DNA of 64,000 nucleotides, taken from NCBI GenBank assembly GCA_002726235.1, contig PBSN01000008.1, forward strand, positions 448,635-512,634, in the 5' to 3' direction. Made by a program: the position numbers and the translations under genes. This DNA is from Nitrospiraceae bacterium (GTDB lineage: Bacteria > Nitrospirota > Nitrospiria > Nitrospirales > UBA2166). Position 1 is the stretch's first letter; each line of letters opens with the position of its first letter. Of the stretch, positions 6,709-13,184 are shown one piece after another. The notes below the pieces were generated by a model that was not told the origin of the DNA, ran no database searches, and was given only the letters and a program-made list of their open reading frames with translations.

Positions 6709-7335
6709 CTATCGGTTCTGAGACTGCACCCGACGCTGCCACAGATACAGCAACCAATAGATGTGTGAGCCGATCGCTGCAAACCAAATAAACCATTCAG
6801 GTTTCGAAACCAGTGCGAGGAACAGAATCAAGACGGAAAAATCTCGATTCGTCAGCTGCACAAGAAAATTGTTCAGTAGCGATTCAGTGGCTCCATTGGC
6901 TGGAGAATCTCGAAGTATCACAAACAAATCGATCAACATTCCAGTAGCCGCCACCATCCCCAACAGCACGTAAATCAAGCCCTCCTCACGATACGCGGCC
7001 CACGTAATTCCAGCGATGATAGCAATGTGAACCATGTTATCCGCAAGCAGATCAAAACGGTCCCCAAAGGGCGACTCAAGATGTTTGATCCTCGCAACCT
7101 CACCATCACAGCAATCGACAATTAATGAGAGTTGAAAGAGCAAGGCGCCAATGATGCCTCCGGCATACCCGCCATAGGCAAATGCGGCTGCGGCACCTAA
7201 GCCGATAAACATGGCAAGAAGGGTAATGGAGTTAGGAGTAAGGGAAGTCTTCAGAAAAAGCAGGGTAAGAGGACGGGAACACTTGCGGTTTAAATGCCTA
7301 TCGACAAACCCATCTGTACGAACCACAGATGCCAC
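6709..7335 (-). CDS. CDP-alcohol phosphatidyltransferase family protein (start uncertain, possibly N-terminally truncated)
   Basis: Complete signature DCCDGEVARIKHLESPFGDRFDLLAD plus TPNSIT; multiple TM helices. Confidence 0.88.
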   Translation of the reverse strand: MASVVRTDGFVDRHLNRKCSRPLTLLFLKTSLTPNSITLLAMFIGLGAAAAFAYGGYAGGIIGALLFQLSLIVDCCDGEVARIKHLESPFGDRFDLLADNMVHIAIIAGITWAAYREEGLIYVLLGMVAATGMLIDLFVILRDSPANGATESLLNNFLVQLTNRDFSVLILFLALVSKPEWFIWFAAIGSHIYWLLYLWQRRVQSQNR

Positions 7336-7354
7336 GGATTATATTACAACTGAG

Positions 7355-7368
7355 TGAATAATTATTCA
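7355..7368. promoter_or_regulatory. Perfect 14-bp palindrome TGAATAATTATTCA, putative operator
   Basis: Perfect dyad about 20 bp upstream of the 7335 GTG; matches the TGAATWWWWATTCA core of ARG boxes. Confidence 0.35.
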
Positions 7369-7491
7369 TCCTCACAACGCATCGGCAATACGTCGAGATT
7401 GTGATGACGTGCGTTGCTATCACCAGCCCAAATATTAAGCGCCAACCCGTAAACTTGGTAGAGAGGATTATGCCAGCCAATATGCCATTCA

Positions 7492-7522
7492 CTGAGTGTC
7501 CAAACGCGATATGGACACTCAG
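7492..7522. other. Inverted repeat CTGAGTGTCCA-N9-TGGACACTCAG (hairpin or operator)
   Basis: 11-bp perfect stem, 9-nt loop, no flanking U-tract. Confidence 0.45.
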
Positions 7523-7800
7523 AGTTACTCATAACATTGCCATATCACACTAAAGGTCGCGTTTTTTTCTCTGCCCCCTTTCTTCTGCCTTCACGATATC
7601 ATCAACGCTCACCAATAAGAGTGCCTTTTATCCCAAGGCGTTTTACAACTCTCTCACCAGGCATAACCCTTGATGCTTTGATTGGTCACCAAGCAAATAG
7701 CAGGAACACAGAAGCACAGGGAATGGAGAGAGATGTGATCGAGAAAGAACACCAAGTCTGCTGGTATGGCGAGCAAAGATAGGCCTTTAGGTTGGGAAGC

Positions 7801-8778
7801 TTAGTCAAGATATCCCCAACATCTCATGATCTTGATAGAATCCTCTTCACTGTACACGAGAAATTTAAGCATCGTATCAAGTCCGTTACAGGCACGCTCA
7901 AGATTCGTATCCATTCCGGGGAAATCAGGCCACCCTTGCTCGTTCTTGGTCATCATAATCCAATCCATGCCGGCTTGAATCGCGGGATCGCATTGGCGCT
8001 CAATTCCAAGCATGCGAGAAACCAACATCAGCGATCGCACGGAGTCCATAGTATGCTCGACACTGTCATTGTCCCATGACCCGCTTTCTGCCTGCAATGA
8101 CAATAAAAGTTCTGCCCCTTTACGACATGGGCGACTTACTCGCATGACGTTTTCGATCATCACATCGGCGACCAATGAATCTTGTATGAGATGTGCAGTA
8201 AGTGCAACACCCGTCGGATAGAACTCTTGGTCATACCATCCCCCATCCGTTGATTGATTATCGAGAATAAACTGCATCCCTTTCTTCCATGATTCTGTCA
8301 CCTTTTTCCGCATCGTCGTTCCAAATTCCTTCCCTAACACAAGTACCACATTTAAAAAACTTACAGGGTAGCTCGTGGCGTCCAAATCTGACCAGGAAGG
8401 ATCAACCCATCTCCCATCAGGCTTCTGGGCATCAAGAAAATATCGTATCGCGAGTTGAACGGATCCGGAAAGACGTTCATACTTTAGAAGCTGATTTCCA
8501 CGAATAAGCATAAGGCCACAGAAGGCAGATACCCAAACCTTGCTTTCAGTGTCGGTACCAGTTTGCCCCCATCCACCATCCTCATTTTGCTGCGCTCCAA
8601 GCGCAATAAACTCTGGAGTCGATGTCTCGACGACCTTCTTGTGAATCAAAACACGCAACGCATGTGCCACTAACTTCAAATCGTGCTGATCACTTGTGGT
8701 TAGACTCCAATTGTCATATTCTGACCGCAAGTACGCATATTCGCTTTCAATAACTGACTCTATCTCTTCCGGCGTCAT
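7801..8778 (-). CDS. Prenyltransferase/squalene-oxidase repeat protein (single alpha/alpha barrel, class II terpene cyclase-like fold)
   Basis: Five QW-type repeats: QQNEDGGW, AQKPDGRW, NQSTDGGW, LQAESGSW, TKNEQGW; DLDAT at a DxDDT-like position. Confidence 0.78.
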   Translation of the reverse strand: MTPEEIESVIESEYAYLRSEYDNWSLTTSDQHDLKLVAHALRVLIHKKVVETSTPEFIALGAQQNEDGGWGQTGTDTESKVWVSAFCGLMLIRGNQLLKYERLSGSVQLAIRYFLDAQKPDGRWVDPSWSDLDATSYPVSFLNVVLVLGKEFGTTMRKKVTESWKKGMQFILDNQSTDGGWYDQEFYPTGVALTAHLIQDSLVADVMIENVMRVSRPCRKGAELLLSLQAESGSWDNDSVEHTMDSVRSLMLVSRMLGIERQCDPAIQAGMDWIMMTKNEQGWPDFPGMDTNLERACNGLDTMLKFLVYSEEDSIKIMRCWGYLD

Positions 8779-8796
8779 GTATGTACTCCCCTCCTC

Positions 8797-9552
8797 CTAC
8801 AATACCGACATATTGTTGATCGCGTCGAGACGCATAATGCCCGGCAATACATCGTCCTCCGCTCGATCCCGATCAGGCACACAATCAATCTCTATCCATG
8901 GCAAACCACCAATTTCCTCATATCCAACGTCAGCATGCTTGAAAAACATCTCGAGCGCGTCCTCATACTCAAGATCAAGATTCCCACTCGCGATATACGG
9001 ACATAGAGCATCATCAATATACTCCGTATTTGAAGCGGCAACTTTAAGAAACCCAACACCTTCTCCATGGGGAATTGCTCCTACGGGCGGAGTTTTTGTC
9101 AAGCTAACAACTAGGCCATCACGCACCATAACCATCATCTCTTCATCGTGTTGCTTCACGTATTGATCCACAAGAAGCGCATTTGGATGCGCTGATTCTA
9201 ACAAACGACTCAGGAACACTTTGGGAAACAAAATATCGGCATCCATGACCAGAACATCATCATCAAACTCTGTTCGAGCCATCCACAGCGAATAAATGCT
9301 TCCACGGCAAAACTCCTCGTTGATAATCCATCGGATCGACATCGAGGAGTCGACAGCCGTGGTCTCTTTCATAATTTGCTCTTTGCGATAGCCCACTACG
9401 ATCGAGACATTGGAAATCCCTACACTTTGAAGACTATCCAAATACCATGCAATGAGCGAACGACCAGCAAACGGCATAAGACATTTCGGTATGGAGTCAG
9501 TCACGGGAGCCATCCGTCGTCCAAGGCCAGCTGCGAGAATAATCGCTCTCAT
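8797..9552 (-). CDS. Phosphocholine/phosphonate cytidylyltransferase family NTP transferase (LicC/PntC-like)
   Basis: AIILAAGLGRRM, PKCL, MDADILF, WIEID motifs; 4-bp overlap with the upstream transaminase. Confidence 0.85.
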   Translation of the reverse strand: MRAIILAAGLGRRMAPVTDSIPKCLMPFAGRSLIAWYLDSLQSVGISNVSIVVGYRKEQIMKETTAVDSSMSIRWIINEEFCRGSIYSLWMARTEFDDDVLVMDADILFPKVFLSRLLESAHPNALLVDQYVKQHDEEMMVMVRDGLVVSLTKTPPVGAIPHGEGVGFLKVAASNTEYIDDALCPYIASGNLDLEYEDALEMFFKHADVGYEEIGGLPWIEIDCVPDRDRAEDDVLPGIMRLDAINNMSVL

Positions 9553-10628
9553 CTTCCCACAACAGCCTGCTCACACACCTGCTCCAATGCGCTAATAAAG
9601 CCATCGAAGTCAGCTTGTGTCAACGCCCCCATATTTGCAACACGGAAAATGTTGGAATATAACGCTCCCTGTCCCGCATAAATTACAAACCCACGGACTT
9701 TGAGTTGATCATGAAGTTCAACATAGGTGAGAAAAGGTGGAACTCGAACTGCCGTGATAGTGTTTGAGGCATAATCTTCGGAAACAATGCATTGCAGATC
9801 GAGATCACGAAAACTCCGCCGAAGAAAACGTGATGCCCTATGATATCGATCGATTCGACGATCAACCCCTTCGTCCAAGAGTTCCGCTAAGGCTTCGTGA
9901 AAAGCATAATGGAGTTGAACCGATGGGGTAAACGGAACCCCAGGATCGTGACAATAGGAAGGAAGGTGAAGGGACACCGACCGCTTTGGATAAGTCCGCA
10001 TGGTATCTATAAGGGAATCTCTCACCAATAGGAAAGAGACCCCAGGAAAACCTTGAATACACTTTCCCGCCGTCCCGGCAAGGATATCAATATGACTTGC
10101 GGCAAGGTCAATATTCTCTCCACCAATTGAGCTCACCCCATCAACGAGAAAAATTTTTCCATAGCGGTGAGCCAGCTCGCCAATCTCTTTTACCGGATTC
10201 CGCAATCCAGTCGTAGTTTCGTGGTGCACCACCGCAACAACCTGAATCAATGGGTCAGCATTGAGTGATGACTCTATTTGAGCAAGCGGCGGCGGTTGAG
10301 TCCAATCAAGATTTAATTCTATCTTTCCAAGTCGATACGCTTGAGCAATTTCAGCAATTCGATCGCCATAGACTCCGTTCTTGATCACAAGAAGCTTCTT
10401 TCCCGGTTGGACAATAGATGTGATCGCGGCTTCAACTGCCGCGGTCCCAGAGCACGAAATGACAATCGCACGATAGTCTTGAGATCGTGCAAACGCCTGA
10501 ATGAGCTTCAATTTAATGTCGTATAAAAGAGAATAAAACTCTTCTTCACGATGACAAATATCGTCACGTAGCAACGCTTGCCGCACACGTTCAGACACAT
10601 TGACAGGTCCAGGATTAAGAAGAATCAC
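9549..10628 (-). CDS. Class V PLP aminotransferase, 2-aminoethylphosphonate-pyruvate transaminase-like (AepZ/PhnW family)
   Basis: LLNPGPV, HHETTTG, DGVSSIGG, PLP lysine in AGKCIQGFPG, PFTP, IYAGQG, FRVANMG. Confidence 0.88.
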   Translation of the reverse strand: MILLNPGPVNVSERVRQALLRDDICHREEEFYSLLYDIKLKLIQAFARSQDYRAIVISCSGTAAVEAAITSIVQPGKKLLVIKNGVYGDRIAEIAQAYRLGKIELNLDWTQPPPLAQIESSLNADPLIQVVAVVHHETTTGLRNPVKEIGELAHRYGKIFLVDGVSSIGGENIDLAASHIDILAGTAGKCIQGFPGVSFLLVRDSLIDTMRTYPKRSVSLHLPSYCHDPGVPFTPSVQLHYAFHEALAELLDEGVDRRIDRYHRASRFLRRSFRDLDLQCIVSEDYASNTITAVRVPPFLTYVELHDQLKVRGFVIYAGQGALYSNIFRVANMGALTQADFDGFISALEQVCEQAVVGR

Positions 10629-11191
10629 TCTGGCATTCCGTTAGCAGCCTTCATAAAACGTTTGGTCATAACATCGGGCGCTACATCAACACGCAAAACA
10701 TCATCGACCTGCCTCGAGACCTTCACCAATAAAAACCCTGGTCCGTGAGCACTCAACATTCGCTCAAGAGTGTGAGGAAGAAGATGTTCTTCCACTACTC
10801 GATTTACAACAGCATATCCACACGACCGCGCAACAGCGTCAAGCGACACACTATGTGAAAGAGTCGCTTGATCTCCGGTACTTCCATAGACCTCGTTGTC
10901 AAACACAACGTGCAGAAGATTCTTTGGTTGATGCGCTGCAATGGTGGCGAGCGTCCCCATATTCATAAGGACATTGCCGTCACCATCCATAACCACAACG
11001 GTTCGGGTAGGTTTCGCAAGAGCAATACCAACACCGATGGCAGAAGCAAGGCCCATCGACCCGATCATATAAAAACGCTCGGACCGATCGTGAAAAGAAA
11101 ACGCCTCCCGCGAAGGAAATCCGTTACAAACAATTACTAGCTCGTCCGTGAGCTTACTTAGAACGACATGAATCGCTTCCGCACGTGTCAT
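10625..11191 (-). CDS. ThDP-dependent sulfopyruvate/phosphonopyruvate decarboxylase beta subunit (ComE-like)
   Basis: NGFPSRE, FYMIGSMG, ThDP-binding DGDG...VFDN, STGDQ motifs. Confidence 0.88.
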   Translation of the reverse strand: MTRAEAIHVVLSKLTDELVIVCNGFPSREAFSFHDRSERFYMIGSMGLASAIGVGIALAKPTRTVVVMDGDGNVLMNMGTLATIAAHQPKNLLHVVFDNEVYGSTGDQATLSHSVSLDAVARSCGYAVVNRVVEEHLLPHTLERMLSAHGPGFLLVKVSRQVDDVLRVDVAPDVMTKRFMKAANGMPE

Positions 11192-11670
11192 TCCACCACG
11201 CCTTGCGTCAACATCAACGCCACAGGAGTTCGCCGAGAGTTCATGTGGTCACGCGCCCACTCAATATCAATCTGAAGTGAATCAATTGCAATCAGCCTGG
11301 AGGGAATAGACACGGTTTCAAGAATGCGTGTACAAACCTCACCCATGACAAGATGCTCGGGAGCATCGATTCCTTGATATCCACGCCAAGAGATCAGCAG
11401 GAGACACGGCATGGAATAAATTAAATTGAGAGACGTCAACACGTTGAGACAATTTCCCAAGCCCGAGTTCTGCATTAACACGACAGGTTGCTTGCCGCCA
11501 AGAAACGCACCTGCGGCCATTCCAACAGCTTCATCTTCTCGAACCGATGAAACATATCGTCCTTGAGCAGTCAACACAGCAATGAGACCGGCGAGTGCAG
11601 TGTCTGGCACACCGGTATAGAAATTGAATCCAGAATCGACAAGCATTTGGACAACATCAGTTGAAGTCAT
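11188..11670 (-). CDS. Sulfopyruvate/phosphonopyruvate decarboxylase alpha subunit (ComD-like)
   Basis: YTGVPD, REDEAVGMAAG, LMQNSGLGN, SWRG, DAPEH motifs; 4-bp overlap with the beta subunit. Confidence 0.88.
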   Translation of the reverse strand: MTSTDVVQMLVDSGFNFYTGVPDTALAGLIAVLTAQGRYVSSVREDEAVGMAAGAFLGGKQPVVLMQNSGLGNCLNVLTSLNLIYSMPCLLLISWRGYQGIDAPEHLVMGEVCTRILETVSIPSRLIAIDSLQIDIEWARDHMNSRRTPVALMLTQGVVE

Positions 11671-11819
11671 AATTTAACCATAGCATGCTTCTAGCAATGG
11701 ATTATCTAAACCGCAAAACATGGATAAAATTGCGGGACAATATATCATCCCGCCCTGTATACCGGCTAGGTTTGATAAGATGTGGATATACAGACATCTT
11801 GCCCGCATAATGGAGTAAC

Positions 11820-13184
11820 TTGATGACAAAAGCTAAAATATCATTCGTCACGTCCCTGCTTCTCCTCATCCTATGCCTTGCCTGGCTACACATAGTCATG
11901 GCTGAAAATCTGCCATTAATTACGCTAGAACCTATCGCCACTGGCCTTACCAATCCTCTCGGAATCGTTGATGCCGGAGATTCTTCTGGCAGACTATTTG
12001 TTGTATTGCAAGCTGGGCAAATTATCATTGTGAACAGCACGACAACTTTGAACACACCGTTCCTTGACATTCGTGAGCGCGTACGTAGTGGCGGTGAACT
12101 GGGTTTGCTTGGATTGGCTTTTCACCCGCAATACAGGTCAAACGGATTTTTCTACATCAACTACACCAATCGTCAAGGACAAACTGTCATCTCTCGTTTC
12201 CAAGTTTCAACAGCCACAAATACTGCTGATGCCGAATCAGAACTCATCATACTTACCATCGATCAACCTTTTTCCAATCATAACGGCGGACAGATCCAGT
12301 TTGGACCCGATGGACTCCTGTATATCGGCACCGGGGATGGCGGAGCGGGAGGCGACCCGCAGAATCGTGCACAAAACCTCGGTGACCTTTTAGGAAAAAT
12401 GCTTCGTATCAACGTAAACGAGGATGATTTCCCCACCGATCAAGACCGCAACTACGCGATCCCACCGAATAACCCCTTCATCAATAACCTAGCGGCTCGT
12501 AATGAAATATGGGCCTATGGCCTTCGGAATCCATGGAGATTTAGTTTTGACCGCCTGACCGGTGCGCTTTTCATTGGAGATGTCGGCCAAGGAACATGGG
12601 AAGAGATCAGCCGACAGCCCCCAACAAGTTCTGGCGGCGAAAACTACGGATGGCGTTTGATGGAGGGCACCCACTGCTTCGAGCCGGAAGAGAACTGTCC
12701 AACGGACAACCTAACTCTCCCTATCATTGAATACCCCCAGAACTTTGGAGACGAATTTATTGGTTGTGCTGTCATCGGTGGGTATCAGTATCGTAGCACA
12801 GCCATTCCTCAACTTTTTGGAATGTATATCTACGCTGACTTCTGCTCTGGAAAGATCTGGGGATCGCGTGAATCAAATGGTCAATGGGAAAGTGCTGTCT
12901 TACTGGATTCAAATCGATCGATTACGAGTTTTGGTGAGGATATGAACGGGTCGCTCTATGTCAGCGATGCGGCAACCGGATCAATCTTACGCATCGCTGG
13001 TCCCAATGTTGGCGGATGCATTGCCTTTAACCGTGAACCCCTGGCTAATCAGAAGGTCAATCTAAAACAACTAGAAGAGACCAAGCAAAAAACACGAACA
13101 GATACGGATGGCTGTTTTACCTTCGGCCACGTTGTTCCAGGCAAAAAGTTTGAGATCATTATCAAGGGGCCGATGGCTCCGTGA
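11820..13184 (+). CDS. Secreted PQQ-dependent sugar dehydrogenase (GSDH family) with a short C-terminal extra domain
   Basis: Signal peptide; GLLGLAFHP, NHNGGQIQFGPDG, GDGG, GLRNPWRFSFD, DVGQ, NYGW motifs. Confidence 0.9.
   Translation: MMTKAKISFVTSLLLLILCLAWLHIVMAENLPLITLEPIATGLTNPLGIVDAGDSSGRLFVVLQAGQIIIVNSTTTLNTPFLDIRERVRSGGELGLLGLAFHPQYRSNGFFYINYTNRQGQTVISRFQVSTATNTADAESELIILTIDQPFSNHNGGQIQFGPDGLLYIGTGDGGAGGDPQNRAQNLGDLLGKMLRINVNEDDFPTDQDRNYAIPPNNPFINNLAARNEIWAYGLRNPWRFSFDRLTGALFIGDVGQGTWEEISRQPPTSSGGENYGWRLMEGTHCFEPEENCPTDNLTLPIIEYPQNFGDEFIGCAVIGGYQYRSTAIPQLFGMYIYADFCSGKIWGSRESNGQWESAVLLDSNRSITSFGEDMNGSLYVSDAATGSILRIAGPNVGGCIAFNREPLANQKVNLKQLEETKQKTRTDTDGCFTFGHVVPGKKFEIIIKGPMAP

Follow-up and report, generated by a model that had tools for sequence, protein, structure and literature searches.

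The DNA analyzed here comprises 64,000 nt of a Nitrospiraceae genome (G000; 1.87 Mb on 27 contigs, 90.65% complete) and is referred to in its full length as the window. On its minus strand, six co-oriented open reading frames (ORFs) spanning 6709-11670 encode what appears to be that part of a membrane-lipid pathway which supplies 2-aminoethylphosphonate (AEP) as the head group. On balance we favor a reading in which the acceptor of this head group is likely to be a hopanoid polyol, and in which a single-barrel protein related to squalene-hopene cyclase (SHC) is an uncharacterized core component of the pathway. Loci and genomes used for comparison are designated by L and G numbers, respectively.

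We propose that the pathway would begin with a fusion of PEP mutase (PepM) and a nucleotidyltransferase, encoded elsewhere in the genome, which would make phosphonopyruvate. A two-subunit thiamine pyrophosphate (TPP) enzyme would convert phosphonopyruvate into phosphonoacetaldehyde, a transaminase would convert the latter into AEP, and a PntC-like nucleotidyltransferase would activate AEP to CMP-AEP. The steps through CMP-AEP are assigned on the basis of family membership. A CDP-alcohol phosphotransferase would then transfer the aminoethylphosphonyl group of CMP-AEP to a lipid alcohol. A hopanoid polyol, bacteriohopanetetrol or a derivative, is favored as the acceptor over diacylglycerol; we give the former a roughly even chance, and the latter is distinctly less probable. 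The barrel protein would handle the triterpenoid acceptor or its anionic conjugate, normally together with a small Rieske iron-sulfur partner, and in the lineage of the window it would have kept a role independent of that partner.

The ORF listing agrees with the layout described in an earlier note on this DNA. The first four genes of the operon are joined by three overlaps of 4 bp, the nucleotidyltransferase and barrel genes are separated by an 18-bp spacer, and a gap of 465 bp (7336-7800) lies between the barrel gene and the gene of the CDP-alcohol phosphotransferase. The gene order is kept in two related genomes (L005 and L006), with proteins 57-89% identical, and variants of it are found in dozens of metagenome contigs. 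Judged by this conservation, the arrangement is not due to chance.

The first two genes encode the halves of a putative split decarboxylase, the alpha subunit (TPP_enzyme_N; 11188..11670, minus strand, 160 aa; PF02776 35.3 bits) and the beta subunit (TPP_enzyme_C; 10625..11191, minus strand, 188 aa; PF02775 72.5 bits). The alpha subunit scores higher with the phosphonopyruvate decarboxylase (Ppd) model TIGR03297 (126.8 bits) than with the sulfopyruvate decarboxylase model TIGR03845 for ComD (120.7 bits, cut-off 147.95), and the beta subunit scores slightly higher with TIGR03846 for ComE (197 bits, cut-off 221.5) than with the Ppd model (184.7 bits). The Ppd scores of the two halves sum to 311.5 bits, against a cut-off of 312.5, the gene being split in two. 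The coupling of Ppd to PEP mutase was also found: a PepM is encoded elsewhere in G000, and orthologous split genes adjoin PepM-nucleotidyltransferase fusions in L076, L095, L097 and L081. The third gene (9549..10628, minus strand, 359 aa) encodes a class-V aminotransferase of the AEP (PhnW/AepZ) type. TIGR03301 is its best model by a wide margin and covers it in full length (2-351 of 359) with 334 bits, which is under the cut-off of 360.8 bits; the ortholog in G518 exceeds this cut-off with 361.9 bits.

The fourth gene (8797..9552, minus strand, 251 aa) encodes a nucleotidyltransferase of the NTP_transf_3 family (PF12804, 60.2 bits). Its top NCBIfam matches are sugar-1-phosphate and inositol-1-phosphate nucleotidyltransferases, all under their cut-offs, and it is placed with the PntC type by its fold and phosphonate context, with a predicted activity on CTP and AEP. 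The last gene of the operon (6709..7335, minus strand, 208 aa) encodes a membrane protein that belongs to the CDP-alcohol phosphotransferases (PF01066, CDP-OH_P_transf, 51.8 bits; cut-off 22). Its translation contains the pattern D-x2-D-G-x2-A-R...G-x3-D-x3-D, which we take to be the motif of this family, and its top NCBIfam matches, DIPP synthase and archaetidylinositol-phosphate synthase, are both under cut-off. The gene assignments made in the earlier note, together with its route from AEP through CMP-AEP to the CDP-alcohol transferase, thus fit the Pfam and NCBIfam scores. In most relatives the transferase is longer at its N-terminus by about 230-270 residues, for which neither Pfam nor NCBIfam gives a match (examples are L051 9284-10720, L123 13152-14594 and G518 C1:2270341-2270940); the 208-aa copy of the window is without it.

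The fifth gene (7801..8778, minus strand, 325 aa) encodes the single (alpha/alpha)6 barrel with QW repeats of the SHC type. The protein matches SQHop_cyclase_C (PF13243) with 33 bits (cut-off 26.1) and shows weak matches to SQHop_cyclase_N and TED. It is no full SHC: with the SHC model TIGR01507 it reaches 36.9 bits (cut-off 431.1), and its one barrel compares with the two-barrel beta-gamma SHC of about 630 aa. No signal peptide was found, and the protein is probably cytoplasmic because its N-terminus is acidic and non-hydrophobic. An AlphaFold2 model built from an 80-sequence alignment has paired helices, with a pLDDT of 96.2 and a pTM of 0.93. The top Foldseek matches are drimenyl-PP synthase, SHC, the beta subunit of farnesyltransferase and the complement TED (TMq about 0.6, 14-17% identity). 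The modeled fold is clearly an (alpha/alpha)6 toroid. It names no function, however, since all kinds of such toroids score alike in the exhaustive structural search with VIA-align, where epimerases, GH76 glycosidases and cyclases all reach a Z of 22-27.

The sequence is more specific in that the only sequence kin of the barrel are triterpene and terpene cyclases. SHC is its best match in a profile search of the PDB (E 5e-16, in several repeat registers), and hhalign aligns the barrel family with the SHC of G000 itself with a probability of 94.9%. This alignment places the near-invariant D131-L-D133, with A/T next to it, on the D-C-D-D of SHC, of which only DxD would be kept; HMMER gives other repeat registers. 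Five Arg/Lys residues are invariant in the barrel. No fused, longer forms were found at E <= 1e-20 in a length-filtered search, which carries little weight, and the protein Atlas gave no matches beyond the barrel's own family and generic cyclase clusters.

Relatives of the barrel are few. A word-index search yielded 280 relatives among 1732 candidates, and the best 120 of these 280 are 320-356 aa long and 50-88% identical, with metagenome-assembled genomes of Binatia, 'Deltaproteobacteria', Omnitrophica and Desulfurellaceae among their sources. An exhaustive search of 1.84 billion representatives returned only 30 matches at E <= 1e-30. Barrel genes are carried by three of the 401 sampled genomes of the window's phylum, G000 included, and by one of 301 genomes of another phylum. 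By these searches the family is small, tightly conserved and rare.

The neighborhoods of the barrel were compared in 85 loci fetched by barrel homology, three from species genomes, two from a genome search and 80 from metagenome contigs, and neighboring genes were found by tblastn with the window proteins and with neighbors met on the way. L035, with 100% identity to the window, is not an independent locus, and several more of the contigs are almost duplicates. The scan with the single barrel protein reached three close loci; 25 further genome-contig matches (at most 36% identity, partial repeats) were set aside. The earlier note had named the lack of co-occurrence elsewhere as an outcome that would speak against its proposal. 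Instead, at least one phosphonate-pathway gene was found in 67 of the 85 loci, and the 18 loci without such genes are short or cut contigs, except L004 (10.2 kb) and L036 (6.0 kb). Upstream sequence of at least 900 bp is available in 69 loci. In 39 of these the gene immediately preceding the barrel gene encodes a nucleotidyltransferase, in 13 it encodes a PepM-nucleotidyltransferase fusion, and in 11 an HpnG-like nucleosidase.

A quick maximum-likelihood tree of 81 barrel rows (73 different; rows shorter than 290 aa excluded) contains three deep, starred clades that match three gene arrangements. Clade A (41 rows, including the window's subclade of eight) has the order nucleotidyltransferase-barrel-Rieske-transferase, clade B (26 rows) has PepM-nucleotidyltransferase fusion-barrel-Rieske, and clade C (14 rows) has HpnA-HpnG-like nucleosidase-barrel-Rieske-nucleotidyltransferase. 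Because the clades match the arrangements, the association of the barrel with phosphonate genes is, on this tree, old and has survived at least three rearrangements. Two further genes were seen near particular clades. A divergent gene for a 2OG-Fe(II) oxygenase (PF13759; TIGR02466 75.3 bits, cut-off 62.5) lies upstream of ppdA in 16 clade-A loci, including L042, L051 and L090; its product may hydroxylate the phosphonate, and the window contains no such gene. In 13 clade-B loci, including L059, L069 and L073, genes for an ECF-type sigma factor and a zf-HC2 anti-sigma factor are located downstream of the PepM fusion, barrel and Rieske genes, which suggests envelope-stress regulation near this unit.

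The link to hopanoids comes from the composition of several of these loci. The barrels of clade C are encoded within hopanoid operons. In L096, a locus of this clade, twelve genes form a run on the same strand with overlaps or tiny gaps. The run begins with SHC (689.9 bits, cut-off 431.1) and HpnH (529.2 bits, cut-off 225.05), continues with PpdA, PpdB, the AEP transaminase (326.9 bits) and a CDP-alcohol transferase, and is followed by HpnA (498.2 bits, cut-off 367.65) and the HpnG-like nucleosidase (81.6 bits, under the cut-off of 187.1). Its last four genes encode the barrel, the Rieske protein, a fusion of nucleotidyltransferase and CDP-alcohol transferase, and IspH (548 bits, cut-off 440). 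L081 resembles L096 and contains in addition a PepM-nucleotidyltransferase fusion and an HpnL-like gene. Genes of the hpn type or for IspH are present in 11 of the 85 barrel loci. An HpnL-like, flippase-type gene (TIGR03476 167.8 bits, under the cut-off of 195.65) follows the transferase gene of clade A, and such genes occur in 31 of the 85 loci, clades A and C together.

G518, a genome of another phylum assembled as a single contig of 4.19 Mb, has the pathway spread over three sites. The PepM fusion, barrel and Rieske genes stand together at 3.47 Mb. At 2.63 Mb, the genes for HpnN, PpdA, PpdB, AEP transaminase, nucleotidyltransferase and HpnK (326.6 bits, cut-off 232.6) lie in a row, with HpnI (366 bits, cut-off 310) and HpnJ (721.5 bits, cut-off 577.6) divergent from them. 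The N-terminally extended ortholog of the window transferase (45% identity) is encoded at 2.27 Mb, and SHC at yet another place in the genome. G000 itself encodes SHC (751.7 bits) and HpnH (505 bits), and PepM, SHC and HpnH are all present in four of the five barrel-carrying relatives, the fifth being G401. The earlier proposal of an isoprenoid- or hopanoid-linked product therefore gains comparative support from the interleaving in L096 and from the row of hpn and phosphonate genes in G518; the product itself is a prediction. Around the SHC gene of G000 (C8:58000-95000; L127 and L128), HpnN-like and HpnM-like genes, an Omp85-family gene, dxs and ispG were seen; some 5 kb further on are an arsenite-methyltransferase-like gene and a pstSCAB operon.

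The usual partner of the barrel is a Rieske protein, the gene of which lies directly downstream of the barrel gene in 73 of the 79 loci with at least 450 bp of downstream sequence. Four of the six loci without it belong to the window's own subclade. Of 51 distinct partner sequences, 48 retain the CxH...CxxH ligands. In the window, the 465-bp gap downstream of the barrel contains a decayed [2Fe-2S] Rieske gene (7347..7526, minus strand) that was overlooked in the earlier note, as was the absence of PepM from the operon. The remnant was detected by tblastn with the Rieske protein of L006, the closest relative with an intact gene (108 aa; PF00355 71.5 bits), the C-terminal 60 residues of which match window positions 7526-7347 (G000 C8:456160-455981) with 33% identity and an E-value of 1.6e-7 genome-wide. 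In the first ligand motif CPH has become CPY, nothing is left of the second Cys/His motif, and the N-terminal half can no longer be recognized, so that the ligand set of PF00355 is not retained. A 56-aa ORF (7532-7362) is still open across the remnant. In L005 the Rieske gene has been deleted outright and a 90-bp spacer is left.

In comparison with L006, dN/dS is 0.065 for the barrel gene, 0.059 for ppdA and 0.10-0.14 for the other four genes. Departures were counted at the 106 barrel columns that are at least 95% conserved among 74 sequences outside the window's subclade. Their number grows with the loss of the Rieske gene, from 4 in L006 with its intact gene to 12 in the window with the decayed one; it is 16 for the L004 type with its solitary barrel, 23 for P0006 and 29 for the L005 type, from which the Rieske gene has been deleted. 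The departures of the window barrel include H137Y, E192A, D241E, T296A and D298N. From these five related sequences, with strong purifying selection on the barrel persisting after the decay of the Rieske gene, we infer that a Rieske-dependent activity was lost and that another, constrained role of the barrel was kept. Prediction of a complex between barrel and Rieske protein from L006 alignments gave a score of 0.56, with 0.00 for the best control. The result was classed as 'weak support' and was not counted as evidence, although at least 96% of contacts recur between runs and the pLDDT of the partner is at least 86. The mark set for this score is reached by 116 of 157 solved complexes and by 2 of 215 mismatched pairs, and at 0.60 or under by only 18 of the 157.

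PEP mutase is not encoded in the operon. The G000 genome contains one true PepM (380.3 bits, over cut-off), which is fused to NTP_transf_3 and encoded at the end of contig C2. This fusion is only 34-36% identical to the fusions of the close relatives G402, G403, G258 and G369, whereas those are 53-58% identical to the barrel-adjacent fusions of other lineages. For this reason the cognate fusion is judged to be absent from the G000 assembly. The neighbors of the C2 fusion (C2:146000-158539, L003) encode an FAD oxidoreductase, an aldolase-SDR fusion, an ABC exporter, an epimerase, a sugar nucleotidyltransferase, a DegT aminotransferase and an E1 dehydrogenase, and by this content L003 looks like a second phosphonate cluster, of a glycan type. 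Across the barrel-bearing genomes, PepM is present in five of six.

Several observations weigh against assigning the window operon to a hopanoid pathway. No shc, hpnH, hpnG or hpnI-K gene was found near the operon within the 64-kb window; on the same contig, the SHC gene is about 378 kb and the HpnH gene about 282 kb away. HpnL was not found in G000 at its 90.65% completeness, and no hpn genes were seen in the flanks of the clade-B loci. The HpnL-like and HpnG-like assignments rest below curated cut-offs, the structural scores of the barrel do not set cyclases apart from epimerases and glycosidases, and the CDP-OH_P_transf scores cannot name the lipid acceptor. The absence of the cognate PepM, and the location of the remaining one in a sugar/glycan-type cluster, point in the same direction. 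In G401 (locus L004), the barrel gene is an intact, open frame, its product is 81% identical, and its neighbors are the GSDH and TAtT genes that also flank the operon of the window; the other five operon genes are gone and no phosphonate genes stand beside it, and PepM, SHC and HpnH were not found in this genome, the completeness of which is uncertain. The window barrel may itself be changing or losing its function, because H137, E192 and D298 are lost. Finally, the clustering with hopanoid genes may reflect a general grouping of lipid genes. Judged by its gene content, the system of the window is a reduced copy, with a dead Rieske gene and with HpnL and the cognate PepM not found in G000.

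The last of these objections leads to a plain glycerolipid pathway, in which CMP-AEP is coupled to diacylglycerol to give a phosphonate counterpart of phosphatidylethanolamine, the barrel has an accessory role or is an unrelated passenger, and the nearness of hpn genes is that of membrane-lipid genes in general. This would fit the absence of nearby hpn genes from the window and the clade-B flanks, and the CDP-OH_P_transf family mostly serves glycerolipids (the PIP, AIP, PssA and PgsA models are matched). Clusters of Ppm-PntC, Ppd, AEP transaminase, PntC and CDP-OH genes have moreover been described as predicted phosphonolipid clusters in the accessible part of Li & Horsman (PMC8942020). However, the interleaving of hpn and phosphonate genes in the same-strand run of L096, seen again in G518, exceeds mere proximity, and the barrel is no passenger, since it has been retained with the pathway in three deep clades at a dN/dS of 0.065. 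We regard the glycerolipid pathway as unlikely. A sulfonate pathway, in which a ComDE sulfopyruvate decarboxylase and a transaminase making taurine from sulfoacetaldehyde supply the head group of a sulfonolipid, was an option in the earlier note and would account for the two-subunit layout, the slightly higher ComE score of the beta subunit and an operon without PepM. It is not favored, as PepM-nucleotidyltransferase fusions adjoin the barrel in 13 loci and, in the four loci named above, the orthologous split genes. In addition, both the ComD and ComE scores are under their cut-offs while the alpha subunit prefers Ppd, the AEP aminotransferase is the best model of the transaminase, and PepM is present in nearly all barrel-bearing genomes. 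We know of no CMP-sulfonate donor for a CDP-alcohol transferase, and this pathway appears highly improbable.

It is also conceivable that the barrel and the Rieske protein together form a redox enzyme that tailors AEP or CMP-AEP, for example by hydroxylation, and leaves the lipid untouched; this step would have been lost in the window. The position of the barrel beside a PntC-type nucleotidyltransferase or a PepM fusion agrees with this, as does the clade-B unit, which consists only of the PepM fusion, barrel and Rieske genes. The maintained Rieske ligands point the same way, the five invariant Arg/Lys residues would fit an anionic substrate, and the loss of the Rieske gene is accompanied by the loss of conserved His, Glu and Asp residues of the barrel. 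On the other hand, 16 clade-A loci already contain a 2OG-Fe(II) oxygenase, the barrel is under strong selection even without a Rieske gene, and its sequence kin are cyclases only. To our knowledge, no (alpha/alpha)6 barrel oxygenase has been described. Redox tailoring of the head group is rather improbable, and transfer of the head group to a hopanoid polyol is retained as the preferred explanation. A more specific proposal is that the pathway family makes a phosphonohopanoid, with AEP on the hopanoid polyol side chain. The barrel and its Rieske partner would then represent an enzyme of a new kind, which descends from the SHC barrel as a single domain and uses an iron-sulfur partner on a triterpenoid-phosphonate conjugate, and HpnA and HpnL would belong to the same route. 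We put this forward only tentatively.

Signs of expression were found in two hydrothermal-vent metatranscriptome runs, which contain read-length contigs with 100% identity over only 8968-9435 (nucleotidyltransferase) and 9782-9977 (transaminase); two further runs yielded no such contigs. The promoter and terminator scan was uninformative, with five promoter-like sites against 8.4 expected by chance. One of these sites, TTGCCG-16-AATAAT (7388-7361, minus strand), falls within the Rieske remnant, a short distance before the start of the transferase gene; the scan total is below chance. Unrelated genes flank the operon, with TAtT and ABC-2 transporter genes to one side and genes for a GSDH-family dehydrogenase and a DUF218 protein to the other. 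An ORF of 122 aa without a family (orf122; 11702-12070, minus strand) is antisense to the 5′ end of the GSDH-family gene (11820-13184, plus strand). It was rejected as a member of the cluster and is probably not a gene, because the conservation that it seems to show in L004 and L005 falls on the strand opposite the 5′ end of the GSDH gene.

Phosphonolipid clusters are common in genomes, their products are largely uncharacterized, and hpnA and hpnL are still without an assigned function. The interleaving of phosphonate and hopanoid genes leads to a testable prediction, an AEP-bearing bacteriohopanepolyol, and the SHC-like barrel family with its Rieske partner is nominated as a new enzyme to characterize. 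If such an AEP-hopanoid exists, it would spare phosphate-ester phosphorus and resist phosphatases, and in marine and soil samples it would be a new candidate biomarker for bacteria of the Nitrospirota type and related ones. A link between phosphonates and terpenes has been considered before. The accessible part of Li & Horsman 2022 (PMC8942020) describes Ppm-PntC fusions and CDP-OH 'phosphonolipid' clusters with uncharacterized products, and takes a squalene synthase and cyclases in the Nitrosococcus GCF 731 as a hint of a 'phosphonoterpene'. In the corresponding part of Wang et al. 2020 (PMC7285500), the Nitrosococcus hint rests on antiSMASH. A survey of Acetobacteraceae (PMC8776678) links, in its accessible part, a hopene cyclase to PepM in Roseomonas and speaks of an 'undiscovered terpene-phosphonate'. 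The two hopanoid surveys PMC12324291 and PMC12583986 list HpnA and HpnL without known function, and the stem 'phosphon' does not occur in their accessible text. A full-text literature search, which did not extend to supplements, returned no title or abstract, as far as these were available, describing a phosphonate-bearing hopanoid or a barrel-Rieske pair.

The earlier description of the system as undescribed thus has to be narrowed, as a terpene-phosphonate encoded by PepM and hopene cyclase genes had already been speculated upon (PMC8942020, PMC8776678); in the accessible text of these sources the barrel-Rieske pair is not mentioned, and the word 'Rieske' has no occurrence in the text of PMC8942020. 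The core pathway is already of a known kind, and what is new is the barrel-Rieske pair and its repeated embedding in hopanoid clusters; the lipid product is possibly new as well. Among the closest known systems are the 'Burkholderiales_CDP-OH' or Group 1 phosphonolipid clusters, which, according to the accessible part of PMC8942020, contain a PepM-PF12804 fusion, Ppd, an AEP transaminase, a second nucleotidyltransferase and a CDP-OH_P_transf protein, as does the pathway of the window. They differ in that here Ppd is split into two genes, PepM is encoded at another locus, an SHC-like barrel and a Rieske protein belong to the cluster family, and hpn genes are interspersed among those of relatives. 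The hpn clusters (SHC, HpnH, HpnG, HpnA, HpnI/J/K, HpnL and HpnN) include relatives of the window genes in L096, L081 and G518, whereas no hpn genes adjoin the operon of the window itself. The ComDE sulfopyruvate decarboxylase is likewise a two-subunit TPP enzyme with similar scores, but the window proteins score under its cut-offs and keep the genomic company of PepM and the AEP transaminase. The IPCT/DIPPS system, inositol-1-phosphate cytidylyltransferase with CDP-inositol transferase, also pairs a nucleotidyltransferase with a CDP-alcohol transferase for a soluble head group. Its model NF041135 is matched by the nucleotidyltransferase and the transferase of the window with E-values of 7e-19 and 4e-19, and L096 has both functions fused in one protein (454 aa, 132.8 bits), all of these scores being far under the cut-off of 580 bits. 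The context of IPCT/DIPPS is the synthesis of compatible solutes, while that of the window is phosphonate and lipid. For the barrel itself, a close known counterpart is MstE (PDB 6SBB), a monodomain, beta-only class II terpene cyclase, which likewise consists of one SHC-related (alpha/alpha)6 barrel, about 340 aa long, and which, according to the accessible part of PMC12414744, uses DxD instead of DxDD. The structural Z of the barrel to 6sbb is 24.0, the sequence match is marginal (E 0.007) and the repeat register is ambiguous. MstE has no counterpart to the Rieske partner or to the phosphonate context, which distinguish the barrel family described here.

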